From Natranaerofaba carboxydovora (GTDB lineage: Bacteria; Bacillota; Natranaerobiia; Natranaerobiales; Natranaerofabaceae), in contig NZ_CP054394.1 in the NCBI RefSeq assembly GCF_022539405.1, forward strand, positions 3,127,833 to 3,159,832: a stretch of DNA of 32,000 nucleotides, given 5' to 3'. The position numbers were made by a program, and so were the translations under genes. Each line of letters begins with the position of its first letter. Position 1 is the stretch's first letter. Of this stretch, positions 1,073-27,161 are shown piece after piece. The notes under the pieces are model-generated. The model did not search any database. It had not been told where the DNA came from and was given only the letters and a program-made list of their open reading frames with translations.

Positions 1073-3532
1073 ATGTTTGCAAGATTTACCCAAAGAGCAC
1101 AGAAGGTGATGGCCCTATCACAGGAAGAAGCAAAAAGATTAAAACATAATTATGTTGGAACCGAACATTTGCTGTTAGGGTTAATTAGAGAAGGGGAAGG
1201 AGTAGCTGCCAGGGCTCTTAAGAATCTAAATGCAGATTTAGAAGCAGTTAGAGGTGAAGTAGAGAAGCTTGTGAGTCCAGGAGATGAAGCTCCTCTTGGT
1301 AATGTGGGATACACTCCTAGGGTTAAAACAGTAATAGAACTAGCTATGGATGAAGCTAGACAGATGGGACACAGTTATATCGGGACAGAACATTTGCTTT
1401 TAGGTCTAGTTAGAGAAGGAGAAGGAGTGGCCGCCAAAATATTAACTCAAATTGGAGTTAGCCTTGAGAATACAAGAGCTGAAGTGATGAAAATACTTGG
1501 AAGTAGTGAAAACCAGCCTAAAGATTTAAAAGGAAAACCAAATAAGTCTCAAACTTCAAGCAGTAAAACACCTGCTTTAGATTCCTTTGGTAGGGATTTG
1601 ACACAGATGGCTAAAGAAGAAAAGCTTGACCCTATAATTGGTAGGAGTAAAGAGATACAGAGGGTTATACAGGTACTAAGTAGAAGAACCAAAAATAACC
1701 CCTGCTTGATTGGTGAACCAGGGGTTGGGAAAACTGCCATAGCTGAAGGACTTGCACAAAAAGTAGTCGAAGGAAATGTACCCAAAATTCTTGAAGACAA
1801 GCGCGTAGTAACCCTTGAGTTATCTGCTGTTGTTGCCGGAACAAAATATAGAGGAGAGTTTGAAGAAAGGCTCAGGAGGTTAATTGACGAGTTGACCCAG
1901 GCAGGAGATGTTATCTTGTTTATTGATGAACTTCATACTGTAATTGGGGCCGGTGCGGCAGAAGGTGCAATAGATGCATCAAACATCCTAAAACCTGCCC
2001 TTGCTAGAGGTGAGCTTCAGTGTGTTGGAGCAACTACTCTAGATGAATATAGAAAGCATATAGAAAAAGACTCAGCTCTAGAGCGTCGTTTTCAGCCAAT
2101 TACGGTTGAGGAGCCAACTCAAGATGAGAGTGTAGAAATATTAAAAGGGCTTAGGGATAGATATGAAGCACATCACAGGGTGCAGATAAGCGATGAAGCA
2201 CTAGATGTTGCTGTCAAATTATCTGTTAGGTATATTACAGACAGATACTTGCCAGATAAAGCAATTGATTTGATTGATGAGGCAGCTGCAAGTGTAAGAC
2301 TAAAAACTAACACTACTCCTCCCGATCTAAAAAAGATGGAAGATAGGCTTGAGGAAATTCAAACGGAAAAAGAAGCTGCTATAAAAAGCCAGGATTTTGA
2401 ACAGGCGGCTGAGTTAAGAGATAAAGAGCAAAAAGCCAAAGAAAAGCTTGAAGAGTTAAAAACTGAATGGGAGCAAAAACAAATTTCTGATGAAACTAAA
2501 GTAACTGGTGAAGATATAGCAAAAATTGTATCCGATTGGACAGGAATTCCTGTTAAGAAGCTAGCACAAGAAGAGAGCGAGAGACTTTTGGGAATGGAAA
2601 AAATCTTGCACCAGCGGGTAGTAGGTCAGGAAGATGCTGTCAAAGCAGTATCAAATGCCATTAGAAGAGGAAGAGCTGGCCTAAAAGACCCCAAAAGACC
2701 AATAGGTTCTTTTATATTCCTTGGACCTACTGGAGTTGGAAAAACAGAACTAGCAAGAGCGCTTGCTGAAGCGTTGTTTGCAGATGAAGATGCAATAATT
2801 AGACTTGACATGTCAGAATATATGGAACGCCACACTACTTCTAGATTAGTTGGCTCGCCTCCAGGATATGTAGGACATGAAGAAGGTGGTCAGCTAACAG
2901 AGCAGGTTCGTCGTAGACCTTACTCAGTTATACTTTTTGATGAGATTGAAAAGGCGCATCCCGAAGTGTTTAACACTTTATTACAGGTTTTAGAGGATGG
3001 TCGTTTGACTGACTCCAAGGGAAGAACTGTTGATTTTAGAAACACCGTTATAATAATGACTTCAAATGTGGGTGCAAATACAATAAAGAGTAAGACAAAA
3101 GTAGGGTTTCAACCTGAAAGTCAAGAAGACTCTTATGAGGCGATGAAAGAAAGTATTATGGATGAATTGAAAAACACATTTAGGCCGGAATTTTTAAACC
3201 GTGTTGACGAAAATATTGTATTCCATGCTCTAGAAAAAGAGCATTTAAGAGAAATTGTAGAGTTAATGCTAAAAGAGATCGATGACAGAATGGAAGAATT
3301 TGACATAGAATTTGAAATTACAGAAGAAGCCAAAAAGTATCTAGCTGAGGAGGGCTATGACCCAACTTATGGAGCAAGACCTTTAAGAAGGGCAATACAA
3401 AAGAAAGTTGAAGATGTTTTAAGTGAGAAGATTCTAAAAGGTGACTTTAGTTATGGTGATCAAGTAATTGTTGATGTAGACGAAGATGGTAAAAAACTTA
3501 CATTTCAAAAGAAAGAAGAGGCTAAAAAATAA
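1073..3532 (+). CDS. clpC: ATP-dependent Clp protease ATP-binding subunit ClpC (class III stress AAA+ chaperone)
   Basis: Duplicated Clp N-repeat ([20 protein letters not shown] / [20 protein letters not shown]). Two Walker A motifs ([16 protein letters not shown]) with a UVR-like coiled coil between the AAA modules. RBS GAGAGGTG lies ~9 nt before ATG 1073, so the track's GTG 1064 is less likely. Confidence 0.95.
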
Positions 3533-3533
3533 A

Positions 3534-3580
3534 AAAAACAAATTTTAAGCGGGGTTTTTCCCCGCTTAAAATTTGTTTTT
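3534..3580 (+). terminator. Rho-independent terminator after clpC
   Basis: ~21-bp perfect stem (AAAACAAATTTTAAGCGGGG / CCCCGCTTAAAATTTGTTTT) around a TTTTT loop, ending in a T run, 2 nt after the clpC stop. Confidence 0.85.
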
Positions 3581-3643
3581 AAAATCTTTAGAAGGATTTT
3601 TAACATATTTTTAGAATAATATGAATAATGGTCTAATATTGAG

Positions 3644-10480: not shown

Positions 10481-10522
10481 TTAATAAGCTCAAAAAAATG
10501 TAAAAAAAATAAACAAGTATAA

Positions 10523-10560
10523 ATCTCTACGGCTCGTGATACTTTGCGAGCCGTAGAGAT
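10523..10560 (+). other. Perfect 14-bp stem-loop between acsB and acsC (no downstream U tract)
   Basis: ATCTCTACGGCTCG (10523-10536), 10-nt loop, CGAGCCGTAGAGAT (10547-10560). Followed by TAAAAATTAT, not a T run. Possibly an mRNA stability/processing element or a weak attenuator. Confidence 0.5.
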
Positions 10561-10595
10561 TAAAAATTATACAAAAAAAGAAAGGGGATGAAACT

Positions 10596-12975: not shown

Positions 12976-13785
<810 letters not shown>

Positions 13786-13866
13786 ATTGCAGTAAAAGTA
13801 GAGTTGCAGGGCTAGTTTGTGCAGAAAATTATTCAAAGAAAAGATTCCGTCTATTATAGTAGAAAA

Positions 13867-13914
13867 AGAGGAGACGCTCGGTGGACAGCTCGCTCGGGAG
13901 GGTCTCCTCTTTCT
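13867..13914 (+). terminator. Rho-independent terminator after acsE
   Basis: GC-rich stem AGAGGAGAC (13867-13875) / GTCTCCTCT (13902-13910), with additional inner pairs, followed by TTCT. Confidence 0.7.
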
Positions 13915-14146
13915 ACCATTTAGACCACATGACTTATAAGTGAAAAGAATACTAAAGTGAAAAAAATTACAGGACTTGTTGGTGACTACAATGTAGAATT
14001 AGTGTCGTAGTGTTTTTTCTACTATGATGACATGGAAGTAATAAGAACACCTAGAAAATATATATCATGAATGTAGTGAACTGGGTGTTATTTTTATTCG
14101 TCATGATAAGATACACTTTTATAAAGACCCTCTAAATACCTCAATA

Positions 14147-14175
14147 TTGAAAGCTTATCCTTAGAGTGCGATATT
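14147..14175 (+). promoter_or_regulatory. Candidate sigma-A promoter for metV-metF (would give a ~240-nt leader)
   Basis: TTGAAA (14147-14152), 17-nt spacer, GATATT (14170-14175). No experimental support; other AT-rich hexamer pairs exist in this region. Confidence 0.25.
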
Positions 14176-14420
14176 TTGATTTAAGTGATAAGGTTGTTCC
14201 ATTTTAAGAAGTTAAAAAAGTTGCATATACTACCATCTATTACCGGTTGGCACAAATAAGCCTGGGGTGTATGCTAATGGTGCATGCAAAAAACTAGATT
14301 TTTTATGGACTAACTCACGTATAGAATTGGATTCGTAAAATTCATCGCCTTGCATGTGAATGCTGTGTTATGTGTGTAGCACCAGAGGAATTTAGGTCCA
14401 ATAGAAGGGAAGGTGTCGAA

Positions 14421-15095
14421 ATGATAATAGCAGAAAGAAAACCATTGGATAGAATTTTAGAAAACATCAAGCCATTCAAGAAGGTTTTGGTTCTAGGCTG
14501 TCGAACATGTGTAGCGGTTTGTTTGGCAGGCGGTGAAAAAGAAGCCGAAGCTTTGGCTAGAACAATAGACCTAAAAAATAAAAAAGAAGGTAATGATGTA
14601 CAAGTGGATTTCGCCAGCCTAGAGAGACAGTGTGAGTTTGAGTTTGTAGAGGACTTTGAACAGGAACTGAAAGATTACGATGTAATACTTTCCATGGCTT
14701 GTGGTGCAGGTCCACAAACGATAGTTGCGAAATACCCAGAAGTTAAGGTTTTACCAGCAGTAAACACAACTTTTATCGGAATGCCAAAAGAGCAGGGAGT
14801 TTGGGTAGAACAATGCGTTGCTTGCGGAGATTGTGAGCTTGACAAGACTATGGGTATTTGCCCTATAGCCAAATGTTCTAAGAGTATGATGAACGGTCCA
14901 TGTGGTGGTTCTCAAGATGGAAAATGCGAGATTGATAAAGAACTTGATTGCGGCTGGCACCTTATCTATGAAAGACTAAAAGAACTTGGAATGTCTGACA
15001 GAATGAACACAATCGAACCACCTAAAGATTGGTCCACTTCGCACTCTGGCGGTCCAAGAAAACAGGTGAGGGAGGATGTTGAACTTGAAAGCTAA
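14421..15095 (+). CDS. metV: Methylene-THF reductase small Fe-S/zinc-ribbon subunit MetV
   Basis: Cys-rich ~220-aa protein (CRTCVAVC, CVACGDCELDKTMGICP, CGGSQDGKCE) directly preceding and overlapping metF. Start chosen at ATG 14421 (MIIAERKPL) after RBS GAAGGGAAGGTG, rather than the track's 14370. Confidence 0.85.
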   Translation: MIIAERKPLDRILENIKPFKKVLVLGCRTCVAVCLAGGEKEAEALARTIDLKNKKEGNDVQVDFASLERQCEFEFVEDFEQELKDYDVILSMACGAGPQTIVAKYPEVKVLPAVNTTFIGMPKEQGVWVEQCVACGDCELDKTMGICPIAKCSKSMMNGPCGGSQDGKCEIDKELDCGWHLIYERLKELGMSDRMNTIEPPKDWSTSHSGGPRKQVREDVELES

Positions 15096-16005: not shown

Positions 16006-16087
16006 ACGACGAAGGCTAGTCCTGCAGGAACTTAATTAGCAATATCCGGTATCGGACTCAATATTACTAAAAAATATAATCAGAAAT

Positions 16088-16126
16088 AAAAAAACCAGGC
16101 TTTTTAAACAAAAGCTTGGTTTTTTA
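16088..16126. terminator. Terminator after metF (A-run/stem/T-run, potentially bidirectional)
   Basis: AAAAAAACCAGGC ... GCTTGGTTTTTT: 6-bp core (one G-U) extended by A:T pairs, 13-nt loop, T run. Confidence 0.6.
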
Positions 16127-16162
16127 TTGAGTATGACTCTAAGTTATAATAAAATTGTAATA

Positions 16163-16200
16163 CGAAAGTAAAACTTCCCTTATTAACAATAAAGGGAAGT
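16163..16200 (-). terminator. Terminator of the ylbF-like gene
   Basis: 9-bp stem ACTTCCCTT (16173-16181) / AAGGGAAGT (16192-16200). On the minus strand it is followed by TTTACTTTCG. Lies ~20 nt downstream of the stop. Confidence 0.6.
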
Positions 16201-16221
16201 CTTACTAAAAGCATAAGTATT

Positions 16222-16697: not shown

Positions 16698-18947
16698 ATG
16701 GAACTAACAAAGAATGCCAAGACCGTTTTAGAAAAAAGATACCTGAGAAAATCTGGAGATAGACTTACTGAAACTCCAGAAGACTTACTTTGGAGGGTTG
16801 CAAATAACATTGCCCAAGTTGACAGAAATTATTATCCCCACACAGAAGATAAAATAAACGAGGTAGCAGAAGATTTTTATGATTTAATGGATAAGAATTA
16901 TTTTTTACCAAACTCACCGACTTTAATGAATGCAGGCAGTGAACTACAGCAGCTATCTGCTTGTTTTGTTTTACCTGTAGAGGATTCTATGGAAAGTATA
17001 TTTGAAAGTATAAAAAACTCAGCCTTGATTCATAAAAGTGGAGGGGGCACAGGTTTCTCATTTACAAGAATAAGGCCCAAAAATGATGTGGTTTTATCCA
17101 CAGGAGGAATAGCCAGTGGTCCTATATCTTTTTTAAAGGTATTTAATTCTGCTACGGAGGCTGTAAAGCAGGGAGGTACAAGAAGAGGAGCAAACATGGG
17201 TGTTTTAAGGGTAGATCATCCTGATATATTAGAATTTATTTCCTGCAAAGAAGAACAAACAGAAATAACTAATTTTAATATTTCAGTTGCCCTAACAGAA
17301 AACTTTATGAAAGCTCTTGAAAATGGGGAGAATTTCAAATTAGTTAATCCAAAAGACAAAAAGACTGTTAAAGAAATAGACCCTAAAGAAATTTTTAATA
17401 AGATAGTAGAGATGGCCTGGAAAAATGGTGAACCCGGAATAATATTTTTAGATAAAATTAATGAGGAAAACCCTACTCCAGAATTAGGAGAAATAGAATC
17501 AACTAATCCATGTGGAGAACAACCGCTGCTACCTTATGAGTCATGTAACTTGGGCTCGGTTAATCTTTCTGTAATGGTAGATGAAAAGAAAAATAAAATT
17601 GATTATAAAACGCTTAAAGAATGTGTCCATAAAGCTGTACACTTTTTAGACAATGTAATTGATGCTAATGAATACCCTTTAGATAAAATCAGAGAAGTGA
17701 CATTAAGCAATAGAAAGATTGGTCTTGGAATAATGGGTTGGGCGGATATGTTATACAAGCTTAACATACCCTATAATTCAGATAAAGCCCTTGAAACAGC
17801 AAAGGAAATAATGAAATTTATTGATGATGAATCTAAGGAAAAATCTCGGGGACTAGCAGAAGAAAGAGGAGCATTTCCTAATTTTGAATACAGCATTTAT
17901 AAGGAAAGTGGTGAACCTCCTATCAGAAATGCTACTACAACAACTATTGCTCCCACAGGAAGTATTTCAATTATAGCAGGAACTTCAGGGGGGATTGAAC
18001 CGAACTTTGCCCTTGCCTTTTCTAGGAATATATTGGACAAGGAAACGTTAATTGAAGTAAATCCAATTTTTGAAGGTGTAGCAAAAAAAGAAGGCTTTTA
18101 TTCAAAGGAATTAATGGAAAAGATATCAAAAGAAGGAAGTCTGAAGGGTAATGACGAAATACCCGATAACATAAAAGACGTATTTGTAGTATCACACGAT
18201 ATTGAGTCCTCTTGGCATATTAAAATGCAAGCTGCTTTTCAAGAATACACAGATAATGCTGTTAGTAAAACAGTTAATCTTCCATCTGATGCCACTAAAA
18301 ATGATATAGCAGATATCTATAAGCTTGCCTACGAATTAAACTGTAAAGGGGTAACTGTATACAGAGATAAAAGTAGAGATGAACAAGTTTTACAAAAAGG
18401 TGATAGTGAAGACAAAAAGAAACAAAAACAAAAAGAAAAAGCTGCTGAACAATCATCCAAACCCTATATTATTCCAAGAAAAAGACCTGATGTGACTATT
18501 GGCAAAACAGAAAAAATAAGTACTGGCTGTGGAAACCTTTATGTAACTGTTAATGAGGATGACAAAGGTTTATGTGAAGTTTTTGCATCTATGGGTAAGT
18601 CAGGAGGTTGTGCGGCAAGCCAATCAGAAGCAACAGCCAGGCTTATTAGTATGGCCCTTAGGTCAGGCCTGGATGTGAAAACGATAATCAAAGAGCTAAG
18701 AGCAATTAGATGTCCTAATCCCACATGGGATAGTTCAGGAGGCATGGTACTTAGCTGTCCAGATGCTATTGGAATAGTATTGGATAAGTGTATAAGAGAA
18801 AAGGAATCAGGTGAAAAAGTTGATAAATCAGACAATGGAATACAAAAGTTAGACAGGTTAATGGGAGCATGCCCAGAATGTGGGGGTCATGTTAGAAATG
18901 AAAGTGGTTGTATCACATGCTTTTATTGTGGATATTCTAAATGTTAA
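16698..18947 (+). CDS. nrdJ: Class II (adenosylcobalamin-dependent) ribonucleotide reductase NrdJ
   Basis: 749 aa with RNR barrel motifs (LSACFV, NPCGEQPL, SCNLGS, TIAPTGS) and the class II C-terminal module ending in a Zn-ribbon (CPECGG...CITCFYCGYSKC). No nrdB/nrdF partner. RBS AAGGAGG. Confidence 0.9.
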   Translation: MELTKNAKTVLEKRYLRKSGDRLTETPEDLLWRVANNIAQVDRNYYPHTEDKINEVAEDFYDLMDKNYFLPNSPTLMNAGSELQQLSACFVLPVEDSMESIFESIKNSALIHKSGGGTGFSFTRIRPKNDVVLSTGGIASGPISFLKVFNSATEAVKQGGTRRGANMGVLRVDHPDILEFISCKEEQTEITNFNISVALTENFMKALENGENFKLVNPKDKKTVKEIDPKEIFNKIVEMAWKNGEPGIIFLDKINEENPTPELGEIESTNPCGEQPLLPYESCNLGSVNLSVMVDEKKNKIDYKTLKECVHKAVHFLDNVIDANEYPLDKIREVTLSNRKIGLGIMGWADMLYKLNIPYNSDKALETAKEIMKFIDDESKEKSRGLAEERGAFPNFEYSIYKESGEPPIRNATTTTIAPTGSISIIAGTSGGIEPNFALAFSRNILDKETLIEVNPIFEGVAKKEGFYSKELMEKISKEGSLKGNDEIPDNIKDVFVVSHDIESSWHIKMQAAFQEYTDNAVSKTVNLPSDATKNDIADIYKLAYELNCKGVTVYRDKSRDEQVLQKGDSEDKKKQKQKEKAAEQSSKPYIIPRKRPDVTIGKTEKISTGCGNLYVTVNEDDKGLCEVFASMGKSGGCAASQSEATARLISMALRSGLDVKTIIKELRAIRCPNPTWDSSGGMVLSCPDAIGIVLDKCIREKESGEKVDKSDNGIQKLDRLMGACPECGGHVRNESGCITCFYCGYSKC

Positions 18948-18958
18948 TTTGTTAGGCT

Positions 18959-19180
18959 GATTCTACTGCAAAAGGTCTATTCACATAAGTATAATGTTTT
19001 TAATTGATACATCTAAGAATCGAACAGCAGTCCAAATAAGGCTTCCAAATCTAAAAACTCGTCCTGAGTTCGATTAGCTAATGACATCCTGTCATTATGC
19101 CTTATCCGCCCTGTTTTCTCATCAAGATGTATTGCAATTAAAAACAAAACTTAGTTCATATGACTTTTTGCAGTTGAATC
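18959..19180. repeat. Long imperfect inverted repeat (~57-nt arms, ~43 bp paired) enclosing a ~110-nt structured core; candidate ncRNA, nrdJ 3'-UTR element or MITE
   Basis: Hand-paired helices are as follows. 18959-18977 with 19162-19180: 19 positions, with one T/T mismatch and one G/T. 18986-18990 with 19149-19153: 5 bp. 18996-19006 with 19135-19145: 11 bp perfect. 19007-19014 with 19125-19132: 8 bp. The core contains AATCGAAC/GTTCGATT (19018-19025 / 19068-19075) and the hairpin TAATGACA-TCC-TGTCATTA (19079-19097). No ORF. The element starts 12 nt after the nrdJ stop. Confidence 0.6.
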
Positions 19181-19237
19181 AATTTTGCCCTTGCCAAACT
19201 ATTGTAGGCGGTCTGGATGAAGCAGTACATTTGATCT

Positions 19238-20002
19238 CTAGAGTTCTATGGTAAGACCATCATAGGCAGGATCTATATAGTCAGGAAGATATTCATTTAA
19301 GCTATTGTATTCGATTTCATGAGTCATATGGGTGAGATAAGCTTTTTTTGGTCCGATCTTTTCGATAACGGGTAATACTTCATCTACACTTAAGTGATTT
19401 GGATGATAAGTATACCTTAAAGCACCGATCACCAAAACTTTTAGGTTGTTTAGAAGAGAATATGAATCTTGTGGAATCTTAGAACAATCAGTCAAATATG
19501 CGAAATCATCAATACGATAGCCTAGAATTTTTTCCTTTCCATGGTAAATTGGTACGGGCTGGACCTTTGTTCCCTCAATTTCGAATGGTTTTTTTCCGAT
19601 GACATTCATAGTAACTTTTGGCTTACTTGTGTAATCATTGACCCTATCCTTAAATACGTATGGATACATGTTTATAATGCTCTGGGCAGTTATTTCGTTA
19701 GCATAACAGGGTATTGATTTTCCCATTATTTCATTAAACCTTCTAAGGTCATCAAATCCATGGACATGATCTGCATGTCTATGAGTAAACAACACAGTAT
19801 CAATTTTGTTAATATTATAGGTTAATGCCTGAAACCGAAACTCTGGCGATGTGTCTACCAAAAGAAAACGGCTTTTTTTTTCGATCAGAATACTTGAGCG
19901 CCATCTATTATTCTTTTGGTCATTGGAAGTGCAAATATCGCATTTACAGCCGATGACTGGAACACCGTGAGAAGGACCAGTTCCTAGAAATATAATTTTC
20001 AT
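19238..20002 (-). CDS. MBL-fold metallo-hydrolase (PhnP-like subgroup)
   Basis: HxHxDH motif (HRHADHVHG). N-terminal Cys cluster GCKCDICTS, as in PhnP-like phosphodiesterases. 254 aa. Confidence 0.8.
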   Translation of the reverse strand: MKIIFLGTGPSHGVPVIGCKCDICTSNDQKNNRWRSSILIEKKSRFLLVDTSPEFRFQALTYNINKIDTVLFTHRHADHVHGFDDLRRFNEIMGKSIPCYANEITAQSIINMYPYVFKDRVNDYTSKPKVTMNVIGKKPFEIEGTKVQPVPIYHGKEKILGYRIDDFAYLTDCSKIPQDSYSLLNNLKVLVIGALRYTYHPNHLSVDEVLPVIEKIGPKKAYLTHMTHEIEYNSLNEYLPDYIDPAYDGLTIEL

Positions 20003-20080: not shown

Positions 20081-20815
20081 GTGAGTGATACTGAAGTAAA
20101 GAAGTTAGTCGAAGCATTAAAAAATTCTAACAACACTTATGTTTTAACTGGAGCAGGGATGAGTACTGAAAGCGGCATTCCAGATTTTAGAAGCCAAGGG
20201 ACAGGGTTATGGAATGATATAGATCCAATAAAATATGCGACAAGAGATGTATTGCTTAGCGAACCTGAAAAGTTTTTCCAGGTAACTTTTAAAAGGTTTG
20301 TTTCTCTAGTTGATAAAAAGCCAAATGAAGGTCATTATGTGCTCTCGGAATTAGAAAAAGAAGGGATAATAAAAGGTATTATCACACAAAACATTGATGG
20401 ACTTCACCAGGAAGCAGGATCAAAAGAAGTGTGGGAAGTTCATGGAAACATTAAAAAAAGCCACTGTATGGAATGCAGTACGGCATTTCCTTTTGAAGAA
20501 CTTGTTAGTCAGGTAGAAACTAAAGATGTGCCAGAATGTAAAAATTGTGGAGGAGTACTTAGACCGGATGTTGTACTGTTTGGGGACCCTATGCCTGATG
20601 ACTTTTTTGAAATTGCAGCAGAATTGAAACAAAATTGTGATTTTTTACTGATTGTCGGAACCAGCTTACAAGTATATCCTGTTGCAGGCATTGCAGAATT
20701 AGGTATTCCAATGGGTATAATAAACCTAGATAGTACACCACATGATATTAAAGCAAAAGCAGTAATTAATACTAAATGCTCACAAGCTTTAAAACAAATA
20801 AAAGAATGTTTATAA
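20081..20815 (+). CDS. cobB: NAD-dependent protein deacylase, Sir2 family (CobB-like)
   Basis: GAGMSTESGIPDFRS, TQNIDGLH and HG motifs. Zn Cys4 (CMEC...CKNCGG). GTG start after RBS AAGGAGGGA. Confidence 0.88.
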   Translation: MSDTEVKKLVEALKNSNNTYVLTGAGMSTESGIPDFRSQGTGLWNDIDPIKYATRDVLLSEPEKFFQVTFKRFVSLVDKKPNEGHYVLSELEKEGIIKGIITQNIDGLHQEAGSKEVWEVHGNIKKSHCMECSTAFPFEELVSQVETKDVPECKNCGGVLRPDVVLFGDPMPDDFFEIAAELKQNCDFLLIVGTSLQVYPVAGIAELGIPMGIINLDSTPHDIKAKAVINTKCSQALKQIKECL

Positions 20816-20823
20816 CCAAAAAA

Positions 20824-20864
20824 ATTATCCGGGGAACTCTTTTAATTCCCCGGATAATTTTTTT
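20824..20864. terminator. Bidirectional terminator between convergent cobB and the MTH1187-family gene
   Basis: ATTATCCGGGG (20824-20834) / CCCCGGATAAT (20848-20858), flanked by an A run upstream and a T run downstream. Confidence 0.8.
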
Positions 20865-21168
20865 AGTCTGATAACTTTTCATTAACACTCTGTATTTTTT
20901 GATCAGTTGAAGTGGTTATATCACGTCTATCATCAATTCTGATTTGTGTTACTACTCGTTTGGCTCCAGCATCAAAGGGGCTATCGTGCATTTTTTTAAC
21001 AATTTCTAAGCAGTCTTCGAGTTCACCTTCTAAGATTGTTCCCATCGCTGTAAGTTCATAGTTAACTTTATCCTGGACTTTTAATATCTTTTGACACTCA
21101 GCTACATAATAGCTAATGCTAGGAGTATTAGTCCCTAAAGGAACAATACTAATCTCAACAATGACCAT
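20863..21168 (-). CDS. MTH1187/YkoF-family (UPF0045, DUF77) thiamine-binding-like protein
   Basis: 101 aa. The family-typical start MVIVEISIVPLGT...S.YVA and the internal TAMGTILEG motif are present. Confidence 0.72.
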   Translation of the reverse strand: MVIVEISIVPLGTNTPSISYYVAECQKILKVQDKVNYELTAMGTILEGELEDCLEIVKKMHDSPFDAGAKRVVTQIRIDDRRDITTSTDQKIQSVNEKLSD

Positions 21169-27096: not shown

Positions 27097-27122
27097 ATAA
27101 CTAAAATAATTAAAATAACTAA

Positions 27123-27161
27123 AAAAGCTAAAACCCCAGTGAGAAAGGGATTTTAGCTTTT
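27123..27161. terminator. Bidirectional terminator between convergent disA and ORF138
   Basis: AAAGCTAAAACCC / GGG(A)TTTTAGCTTT stem with one bulge, A run before and T run after. Confidence 0.7.

Follow-up and report, generated by a model that had tools for sequence, protein, structure and literature searches.

Results

A structured palindrome between nrdJ and an MBL-fold hydrolase gene

The window, that is, the whole 32-kb stretch of DNA analysed here, belongs to Natranaerofaba carboxydovora, from a lineage of extreme haloalkaliphilic acetogens. Its genes run from a Wood-Ljungdahl cluster through ylbF, nrdJ, an MBL-fold hydrolase gene (MBL) and a SIR2 gene onwards. The nrdJ and MBL genes are convergent and flank a spacer of 290 nt (Table 1). 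NrdJ carries the Pfam domains Ribonuc_red_lgN, Ribonuc_red_lgC and TSCPD, and its C-terminus (...CFYCGYSKC, followed by the stop) has the same length as in the related loci L014, L015 and L001.

Table 1. Features at the nrdJ/MBL spacer, in window coordinates.
Feature	Position	Strand	Remarks
nrdJ	16698..18947	+	convergent with MBL
nrdJ stop codon TAA	18945..18947	+	left edge of ancestral short spacer
nrdJ/MBL spacer	about 18952..19241		290 nt
TTAG, invariant family start or left flank	18952..18955	+	window reads TTTG-TTAG-GCTGATTC; candidate target-site copy
Left arm	18958..19014	+	57 nt; homologous to family left arm, homology running to 19022
Branched, copy-specific core	19015..19124	+	110 nt; begins directly after GAATCG, the family core-switch point
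Core helix AATCGAAC/GTTCGATT	19018-25/19068-75		exact
Core helix TAATGACA/TGTCATTA	19079-86/19090-97		exact
Core pairing ATAAGGC/GCCTTAT	19036-42/19099-105		used in the MFE fold
Right arm	19125..19181	+	57 nt; 82% reverse-complementary to left arm
Tail	19182..19237	+	56 nt; surplus when compared with relatives; a tail also follows in family copies, similarity not significant
CTAG, YTAR-type tetranucleotide, right edge	19238..19241	+	CTA at 19238-19240 is the MBL stop (TAG on the - strand)
MBL	19238..20002	-	MBL-fold hydrolase

A structured inverted repeat of ~220 bp had been placed between these two genes by the first-pass annotation, and it was recovered there by a repeat search, by blastn and in the MFE fold. 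The repeat search resolved the arms into three blocks (18958-18999/19140-19181, 18995-19006/19135-19146 and 19007-19014/19125-19132), and comparison of the spacer with the window by blastn returned a self reverse-complement match of 60 columns at 81.7% identity (E = 1e-7). The MFE fold paired the arms over 49 bp in blocks of 6+13, 3, 2, 5, 12 and 8, with two extra G-C pairs outside the arms at 18956-57/19187-88. The pairing originally described, 19, 5, 11 and 8 over about 43 bp, is therefore close to this fold and somewhat short of it in length, and all the core helices described with it are exact, including the ATAAGGC/GCCTTAT pairing that had been offered as an alternative.

Folding energies were compared with those of dinucleotide shuffles (n = 200). 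The + strand folded at -75.5 kcal/mol against -38.8 +/- 4.0 kcal/mol for the shuffles (z = -9.1) and the - strand at -84.4 against about -45 kcal/mol (z = -9.7). Since none of the 200 shuffles was as good on either strand, the structure is far beyond chance. No ORF of at least 60 aa was present within 18948-19237, in agreement with the lack of coding potential already proposed. Two features had been read as hints of a + strand RNA, namely a G-T arm pair (18974/19165) that occurs once on the + strand and has no counterpart on the - strand, and 'ATTTTG' 3' of the right arm on the + strand only. Both are real and neither carries weight, because the - strand folds more stably and no terminator-like site was detected.

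Only one copy of the palindrome was found in the window by blastn, nhmmer and profile HMM. Compact hairpins with G+C stems and flanking A and T runs occur at 3525-3589, 10515-10568, 20815-20867 and about 27120-27160; these are the ordinary, often bidirectional terminators here, in contrast to the 224-nt palindrome.

The syntenic spacer lacks the element in relatives

The convergent nrdJ/MBL pair is retained in all the relatives compared (L014, L015 and L001/L038), and the element was absent from the syntenic spacer in each of these three closest lineages. The stop-to-stop spacer measures 7 nt in L014 (TAA-tccgcta-TTA; 81% MBL amino acid identity), 11 nt in L015 (76%) and 124 nt in L001/L038 (75%), the last being unrelated to the window spacer and unalignable with it. 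NrdJ and MBL end at the same last residue in the window and in every compared lineage. The window site reads TAA-TTTG-TTAG-[18956...19237]-CTAG-AGTTC, and removal of the bracketed DNA together with one tetranucleotide yields TAA-TTTG-TTA-GAGTTC, with a 4-nt spacer and a TAA stop for MBL, as in the relatives. Because the relatives' spacers are short or unrelated and lack the element, the whole 290-nt spacer looks like an insertion between the stop codons. The extent first assigned, 18959-19180, thus fits the palindrome, whereas the inserted unit appears to be larger, reaching beyond the 224-nt palindrome. A reciprocal case was found beside an rRNA methylase gene: the space up to its neighbour is filled in L001/L038, and the two corresponding genes of the window overlap.

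Other differences between the window and the sister-species MAG (L038) were observed in the same region. The nrdJ gene of the MAG (L038 10887-14111) encodes 1074 aa including an intein (Intein_splicing and LAGLIDADG_3 domains); the gene is intein-free in the window (749 aa) and in L015 (746 aa). Between metF and ylbF, the MAG carries a gene for a 362-aa FAD-dependent oxidoreductase (L038 14693-15781), which is absent from the counterpart region of the window (16006-16221), with no remnant by tblastn. Between acsE (12988-13785) and metV (14370-15095), the window has a 585-nt ORF-free gap (13786-14369) with decayed fragments of an HdrA-like gene that is intact at the same place in the MAG (L038 17793-19085), together with flpD/mvhD. 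The remnants detected by tblastn correspond to aa 41-64 (87.5% identity) and aa 214-328 (35%), which suggests that a gene of the N. carboxydovora Wood-Ljungdahl cluster has decayed or been deleted here.

Homologous arms are dispersed in a sister species

Homologues of the palindrome were found in a sister species, known from a Clostridia MAG (GCA_964498995.1; L038) and one JGI metagenome (Ga0207421). The first, detected by blastn, was L001:2091-2150, at the non-orthologous site between the rRNA methylase gene and the next gene; the local alignment score of the window left arm against it was 45, compared with 26.5 +/- 2.5 for shuffles. A 22-base motif common to both sequences, GTTTTT-N3-6-ATACATCTANGAATCG, was present in ten contigs, all of one metagenome (Ga0207421). 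No more than about 50 nt separated eight of the ten matches from a contig end, as is typical of repeats that break assemblies. These loci (L026-L035) shared 79-81% identity with the window left arm by blastn, and second copies were found in L032, L033 and L026. Furthermore, repeat modules occupy four spacers of an 11-kb arg-operon contig from the same population (L036), and the 20.8-kb stretch of the MAG orthologous to the window contains two copies. The family is thus dense in this uncultured sister species (two copies per 21 kb) and sparse in the isolate's window (one per 32 kb). In total, more than 14 loci of the sister species carry the repeat, at different housekeeping intergenic sites and with 92-99% mutual identity. 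The flanking genes include carB, argF, grpE, yicC, disA, a BCCT transporter gene, a sigma factor gene and a nuoE-like gene, so the repeat is tied to no one gene. At seven copies, the window one among them, element and left-flanking gene share a strand, and at five they are opposed; these five are all sites where contigs end before the downstream gene, and there is no demonstrable orientation bias.

The relationship also emerged in the reverse direction. A profile HMM derived from 12 left arms of the sister species had its sole window match at 18960-19022 (E = 5.7e-4; search space 64 kb, the window on both strands), and 12 of the 14 single-copy nhmmer queries matched only the nrdJ/MBL spacer, colinearly and on the + strand. 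An exact 16-mer, ATACATCTAAGAATCG, is common to the window left arm (19007-19022) and the sister-species copies, and an exact 15-mer, CTCATCAAGATGTAT, lying at the mirror-image position of the right arm (19118-19132), is common to the window and the inner module of the carB/argF copy (L036 9771-9785). Two nhmmer queries (L033c2 and L036c1) matched window positions 19107-19174 and 19110-19149, on the same strand and colinearly. A profile HMM of the right arm and tail had no match at the element, its only window match (E = 0.07) lying inside the SIR2 gene and being ascribed to chance; the case for homology of the window right arm is its complementarity to the left arm and the exact 15-mer. The window core had no similarity to any compared locus by blastn or nhmmer.

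Searches beyond the sister species covered metagenomes, viral contigs, plasmids and phages. The two-block arm pattern had no match in metagenomes, the 22-base motif none in viral contigs, and sensitive blastn of the spacer against plasmids and phages returned only chance matches of 30-46 nt (E 0.3-1). The outer-arm pattern TGATTCNACTGCAAAANGTC had eight matches in viral contigs, all of them a bare 20-21-mer in phage contigs, and these were judged to be chance. The identical 21-mer in these IMG/VR contigs (L018-L025) probably belongs to a conserved stretch of a phage gene that has no relation to the element.

Modular anatomy of the family

In a full copy (for example L038 2243-2600 or L032c1), the order is TTAGTAAGAAAATA..., a left arm of about 80 nt ending in ATACATCTAAGAATCG, a core, a right arm (...CCTAGATGTAAT...GCAGTRAAATAAATCAGTTATTTTCATTACT) and a tail (GGTTGTGGTGTGAAAA...), with the family tail sequence TTACTGGTTGTGGTGTGAAAA.... 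Sister-copy arms span about 85 nt, and at its outer edges the window copy is roughly 13-20 nt shorter than the sister copies. Every full copy folds into a rod, of 250-390 nt, with z from -6.7 to -15.

The core switches in the family exactly after GAATCG, and four kinds were distinguished: a second palindromic repeat (GGTACACGAAGTTTAAT...ATTAAACTTCGTGTACC) in a long or short form; a 'type B' sequence, TCGCCAGGAAAGG, with the junction GAATCG|TCGCCAGGAAAGGTAA, which runs off the contig ends of L027, L031 and L034; a small G+C hairpin; and the unique branched core of the window. Variants were found without the left arm (L036 9684-9955), without the right arm (L001) and with the nesting order reversed, and there are symmetric deletion variants and an arms-only hairpin of 38 nt (L036 1776-1812).

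All 14 sister-species copies start with TTAGTA[AC]G. The flank pairs are TTAG...CTAG in the window, TTAG...TTAG in L001, L032c1 and the L036 mini copy, TTAG...TTAT in L036c1 and TTAG...CTAA in L038c. The TTAG at copy ends may be a copy of the target site or the element's own terminus. Among the examined loci, no transposase-bearing element with the same ends, as expected of an autonomous parent, was found; the type B core is a candidate for part of such an element.

The second palindromic repeat is a family of its own, bounded by GGTACACGAAGTTTAAT/ATTAAACTTCGTGTACC and containing a 21-bp stem (TAAATTGCTTGCTAAATACCA/TGGTATTTAGCAAGCAATCTA). It was located at L001 1923-2091, L036 9700-9840 and L038 2325-2520, and as a lone fragment at L036 2898-2950. 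Copies sit nested within the first family, at the apex directly behind GAATCG, with the order reversed in one copy. On the arg-operon contig, a T-box leader (RF00230, 107 bits; L036 1446-1739) upstream of argC is bracketed by repeat modules, a solo tail (1243-1325) on one side and the 38-nt hairpin on the other, the latter separating the T-box terminator from the argC ribosome-binding site. A 68-aa 'gene' on the same contig (L036 9666-9872) lies wholly within the repeat copy between carB and argF and is almost certainly a spurious ORF.

Searches for RNA families, terminators and other element classes

No match to Rfam 15 was found in the whole window at gathering thresholds. With permissive filters and E<=10, the region 18900-19260 gave only three chance matches, at 12.6-17.3 bits against gathering scores of 40-80, and the covariance model of 6S RNA (RF00013) had no match at the gathering threshold or at E<=10. 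The Rfam comparison that had been proposed for the spacer, with 6S RNA among the families, thus ended without a credible match. A conserved single-copy 6S RNA gene was rejected also on distribution, as the spacers of L001, L014 and L015 lack it and the related sequences are multi-copy repeats.

A tRNA-like element, suggested by the GTTCGATT motifs in the core, was dismissed after ARAGORN found no tRNA or tmRNA in the window. A consensus scan of 18600-19600 detected no terminator-like site, and promoter-like matches were limited to two weak ones, fewer than in shuffles. An intrinsic terminator was rejected because the basal stem is A/U-rich and AUUUUG follows on the + strand only, in contrast to the true terminators at 20815-20867. 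An integron attC site was also considered: GTTAGGC (18951-18957) fits GTTRRRY, but no RYYYAAC partner occurs at the other end, and this lack of an inverse core, together with the housekeeping flanks (carB, argF, grpE, disA and nrdJ), led to rejection of the idea.

Discussion

The nrdJ/MBL spacer as a probable MITE-like repeat

The nrdJ/MBL spacer is probably a diverged copy of a modular, palindromic, non-autonomous, MITE-like interspersed repeat. This reading draws on the conserved arms, the variable nested cores, the symmetric deletions, the near-identical dispersed copies, the reciprocal filled and empty sites and the absence of an RNA-family match. The element has several of the properties by which MITEs are recognised: it is short (282-290 nt, with MITEs under about 500 bp) and non-coding, its 57-nt arms form terminal inverted repeats with 49 bp paired, and the site is cleanly empty in L014 and L015. 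Dispersal of copies within one genome was observed in the sister species (over 14 loci), against the single copy in the window's own 32 kb. The non-autonomous mobile element that the first-pass annotation had listed among its interpretations has accordingly gained ground, through homologous arms at many unrelated intergenic sites of the sister species and through a comparison of the nrdJ-MBL spacer, which that annotation had suggested, in which three lineages with the same gene pair lack the element.

As a mechanism, a transposase supplied in trans could recognise the terminal arms of roughly 60-85 nt, and insertion would have targeted a TTAG/YTAR tetranucleotide lying between the stop codons, leaving MBL with a TAG stop. 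The differing cores would stem from other palindromes inserting, nested, at the apex of the hairpin and from symmetric deletions. With convergent genes on either side, each transcript would reach the palindrome and could form the rod with its 49-bp arms. Such a rod may act as a barrier to 3' exonucleases, serve as an RNase III substrate or hinder transcription from continuing into the gene opposite, and the insertion may separate two genes that overlap transcriptionally in relatives. Hairpins of this kind in UTRs can, according to published work, stop exonucleases or recruit RNase III or RNase E (PMC3049150, PMC10969869); Correia elements are substrates of RNase III, and ERIC sequences are cut by RNase E (PMC10969869). 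In our interpretation, these 3'-end effects would be a by-product of insertion and not the reason for the sequence's existence. The nrdJ 3'-UTR stabiliser among the readings of the first-pass annotation would likewise be a possible side effect.

Alternative explanations

An exapted 3'-end role appears rather unlikely. In it, the hairpin, however it arose, would now be maintained for terminating or stabilising the mRNAs of the convergent nrdJ and MBL genes, as a bidirectional roadblock, an exonuclease barrier or an RNase III site. The position exactly between two convergent stop codons and the very stable RNA fold on both strands would suit such a role, MITE hairpins are known to alter mRNA fate (PMC10969869, PMC3049150), and other convergent pairs in the window have compact bidirectional terminators (20815-20867 and about 27120-27160). 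At the convergent pair of disA and a 138-aa gene, the sister MAG carries a family copy in the place of a window terminator. However, relatives with spacers of 7-11 nt need no hairpin here, only four U's follow the stem, on one strand, with no terminator-like site, and copies of the family also lie upstream of genes, so that both contexts occur. A further-reaching proposal, quite improbable in our estimate, would make of the family an undescribed nested-palindrome system in Natranaerobiia, with insertion into one another's hairpin apices, always after GAATCG, and at TTAG beside stop codons, with a structure-directed enzyme other than a classical DDE transposase, and with a genome-wide co-opted role as bidirectional insulators of tightly packed genes, the nrdJ/MBL copy among them.

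An independent structured ncRNA gene with its own promoter, whether a 6S-like rod or another RNA, is very improbable. The extreme folding z-scores, the architecture of a rod with a core, and a few arm pairs changed on both sides among four copies are what would be expected of it. Nevertheless, no credible Rfam family was found in the spacer or in nine family-bearing loci (at gathering thresholds or E<=0.1), no convincing promoter or terminator was present, and the syntenic site lacks the element in all three relatives. Copies without one arm, with swapped cores or shrunk to 38 nt are incompatible with a conserved RNA fold, and together with the empty sites and the negative RF00013 search they leave the 6S-like regulatory RNA first suggested without support. 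The RNAalifold covariation term was unfavourable (+2.38) and, from just four full copies with the window right arm misaligned, uninformative; in any case, covariation could not tell RNA selection from co-evolution of terminal inverted repeats. A palindrome that arose by chance or locally, as a one-off inverted duplication with no relatives, would agree with the single copy in the window and with its unique core, but homologous arms at more than 14 loci of another species and the exact 16-mer common to the window and the sister-species copies, with the 15-mer shared with one of them, make it scarcely credible, and it can be taken as already refuted unless the arm matches are compositional artefacts.

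Significance

Within the MITE-like interpretation, the sequence family appears to be undescribed, as it has no Rfam match and nothing on repeats was found in the literature on Natranaerofaba or Natranaerobius; the kind of element is well known. The present work describes for the first time a family of interspersed palindromic repeats from the lineage of Natranaerofaba, and it removes a false lead, in that the nrdJ/MBL palindrome represents no new gene for a 6S-like or other regulatory RNA. Because this is a well-known kind of biology, its general significance is modest. In practice, such repeats fragment metagenome assemblies, create spurious small ORF calls, as exemplified by the 68-aa call on the arg-operon contig, and can change the 3'-end processing of adjacent genes.

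Comparison with known elements

Like 6S RNA (RF00013), the element forms a long, mostly double-stranded rod with an interrupted centre. This centre is, however, a multi-helix core of 110 nt and not a promoter-like bubble, and the element is a member of a repeated, variable DNA family. Insertion sequences of the IS5 group and the MITEs derived from them duplicate 4-bp YTAR targets. The TTAG/CTAG flanks of the window element, like the TTAG...TTAG flanks of three sister copies, presumably fit the YTAR target of the IS5 type and are regarded as a lead only, since no IS5-type transposase or matching terminal inverted repeat was found and some copies have non-identical flanks.

Size variants of the enterobacterial ERIC/IRU elements (127 bp) arise by internal deletion or insertion. 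These elements resemble the family in being imperfect palindromes in transcribed intergenic DNA whose copy number differs greatly between related species, and ERIC sequences at the 3' ends of genes change transcript stability (PMC10969869). In contrast, they belong to another phylum and have another sequence, and the element described here is about twice as long, with a branched core. The Correia elements are 100-155 bp long, with 26-bp terminal inverted repeats and a TA duplication. The arms in the present family are 57-85 nt long and any flanking repeat would be TTAG/YTAR, whereas terminal inverted repeats round a variable core and intergenic dispersal are common to both these Neisseria MITEs and the family (PMC10969869, PMC3049150).

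BOX, RUP and SPRITE repeats are modular, over-represented between convergent genes and able to insert into one another, and BOX-type elements are co-transcribed as hairpin-forming extensions of 3' or 5' UTRs (PMC3049150). Compared with the BOX element of S. pneumoniae (boxA-boxB(n)-boxC), the arms are longer here and the middle consists of other palindromes instead of tandem boxB units; a relationship in sequence is not expected. Both are non-coding elements of a few hundred nucleotides from Firmicutes, in which the end modules pair into a stem around a middle that varies in number and content, and copies are nested.
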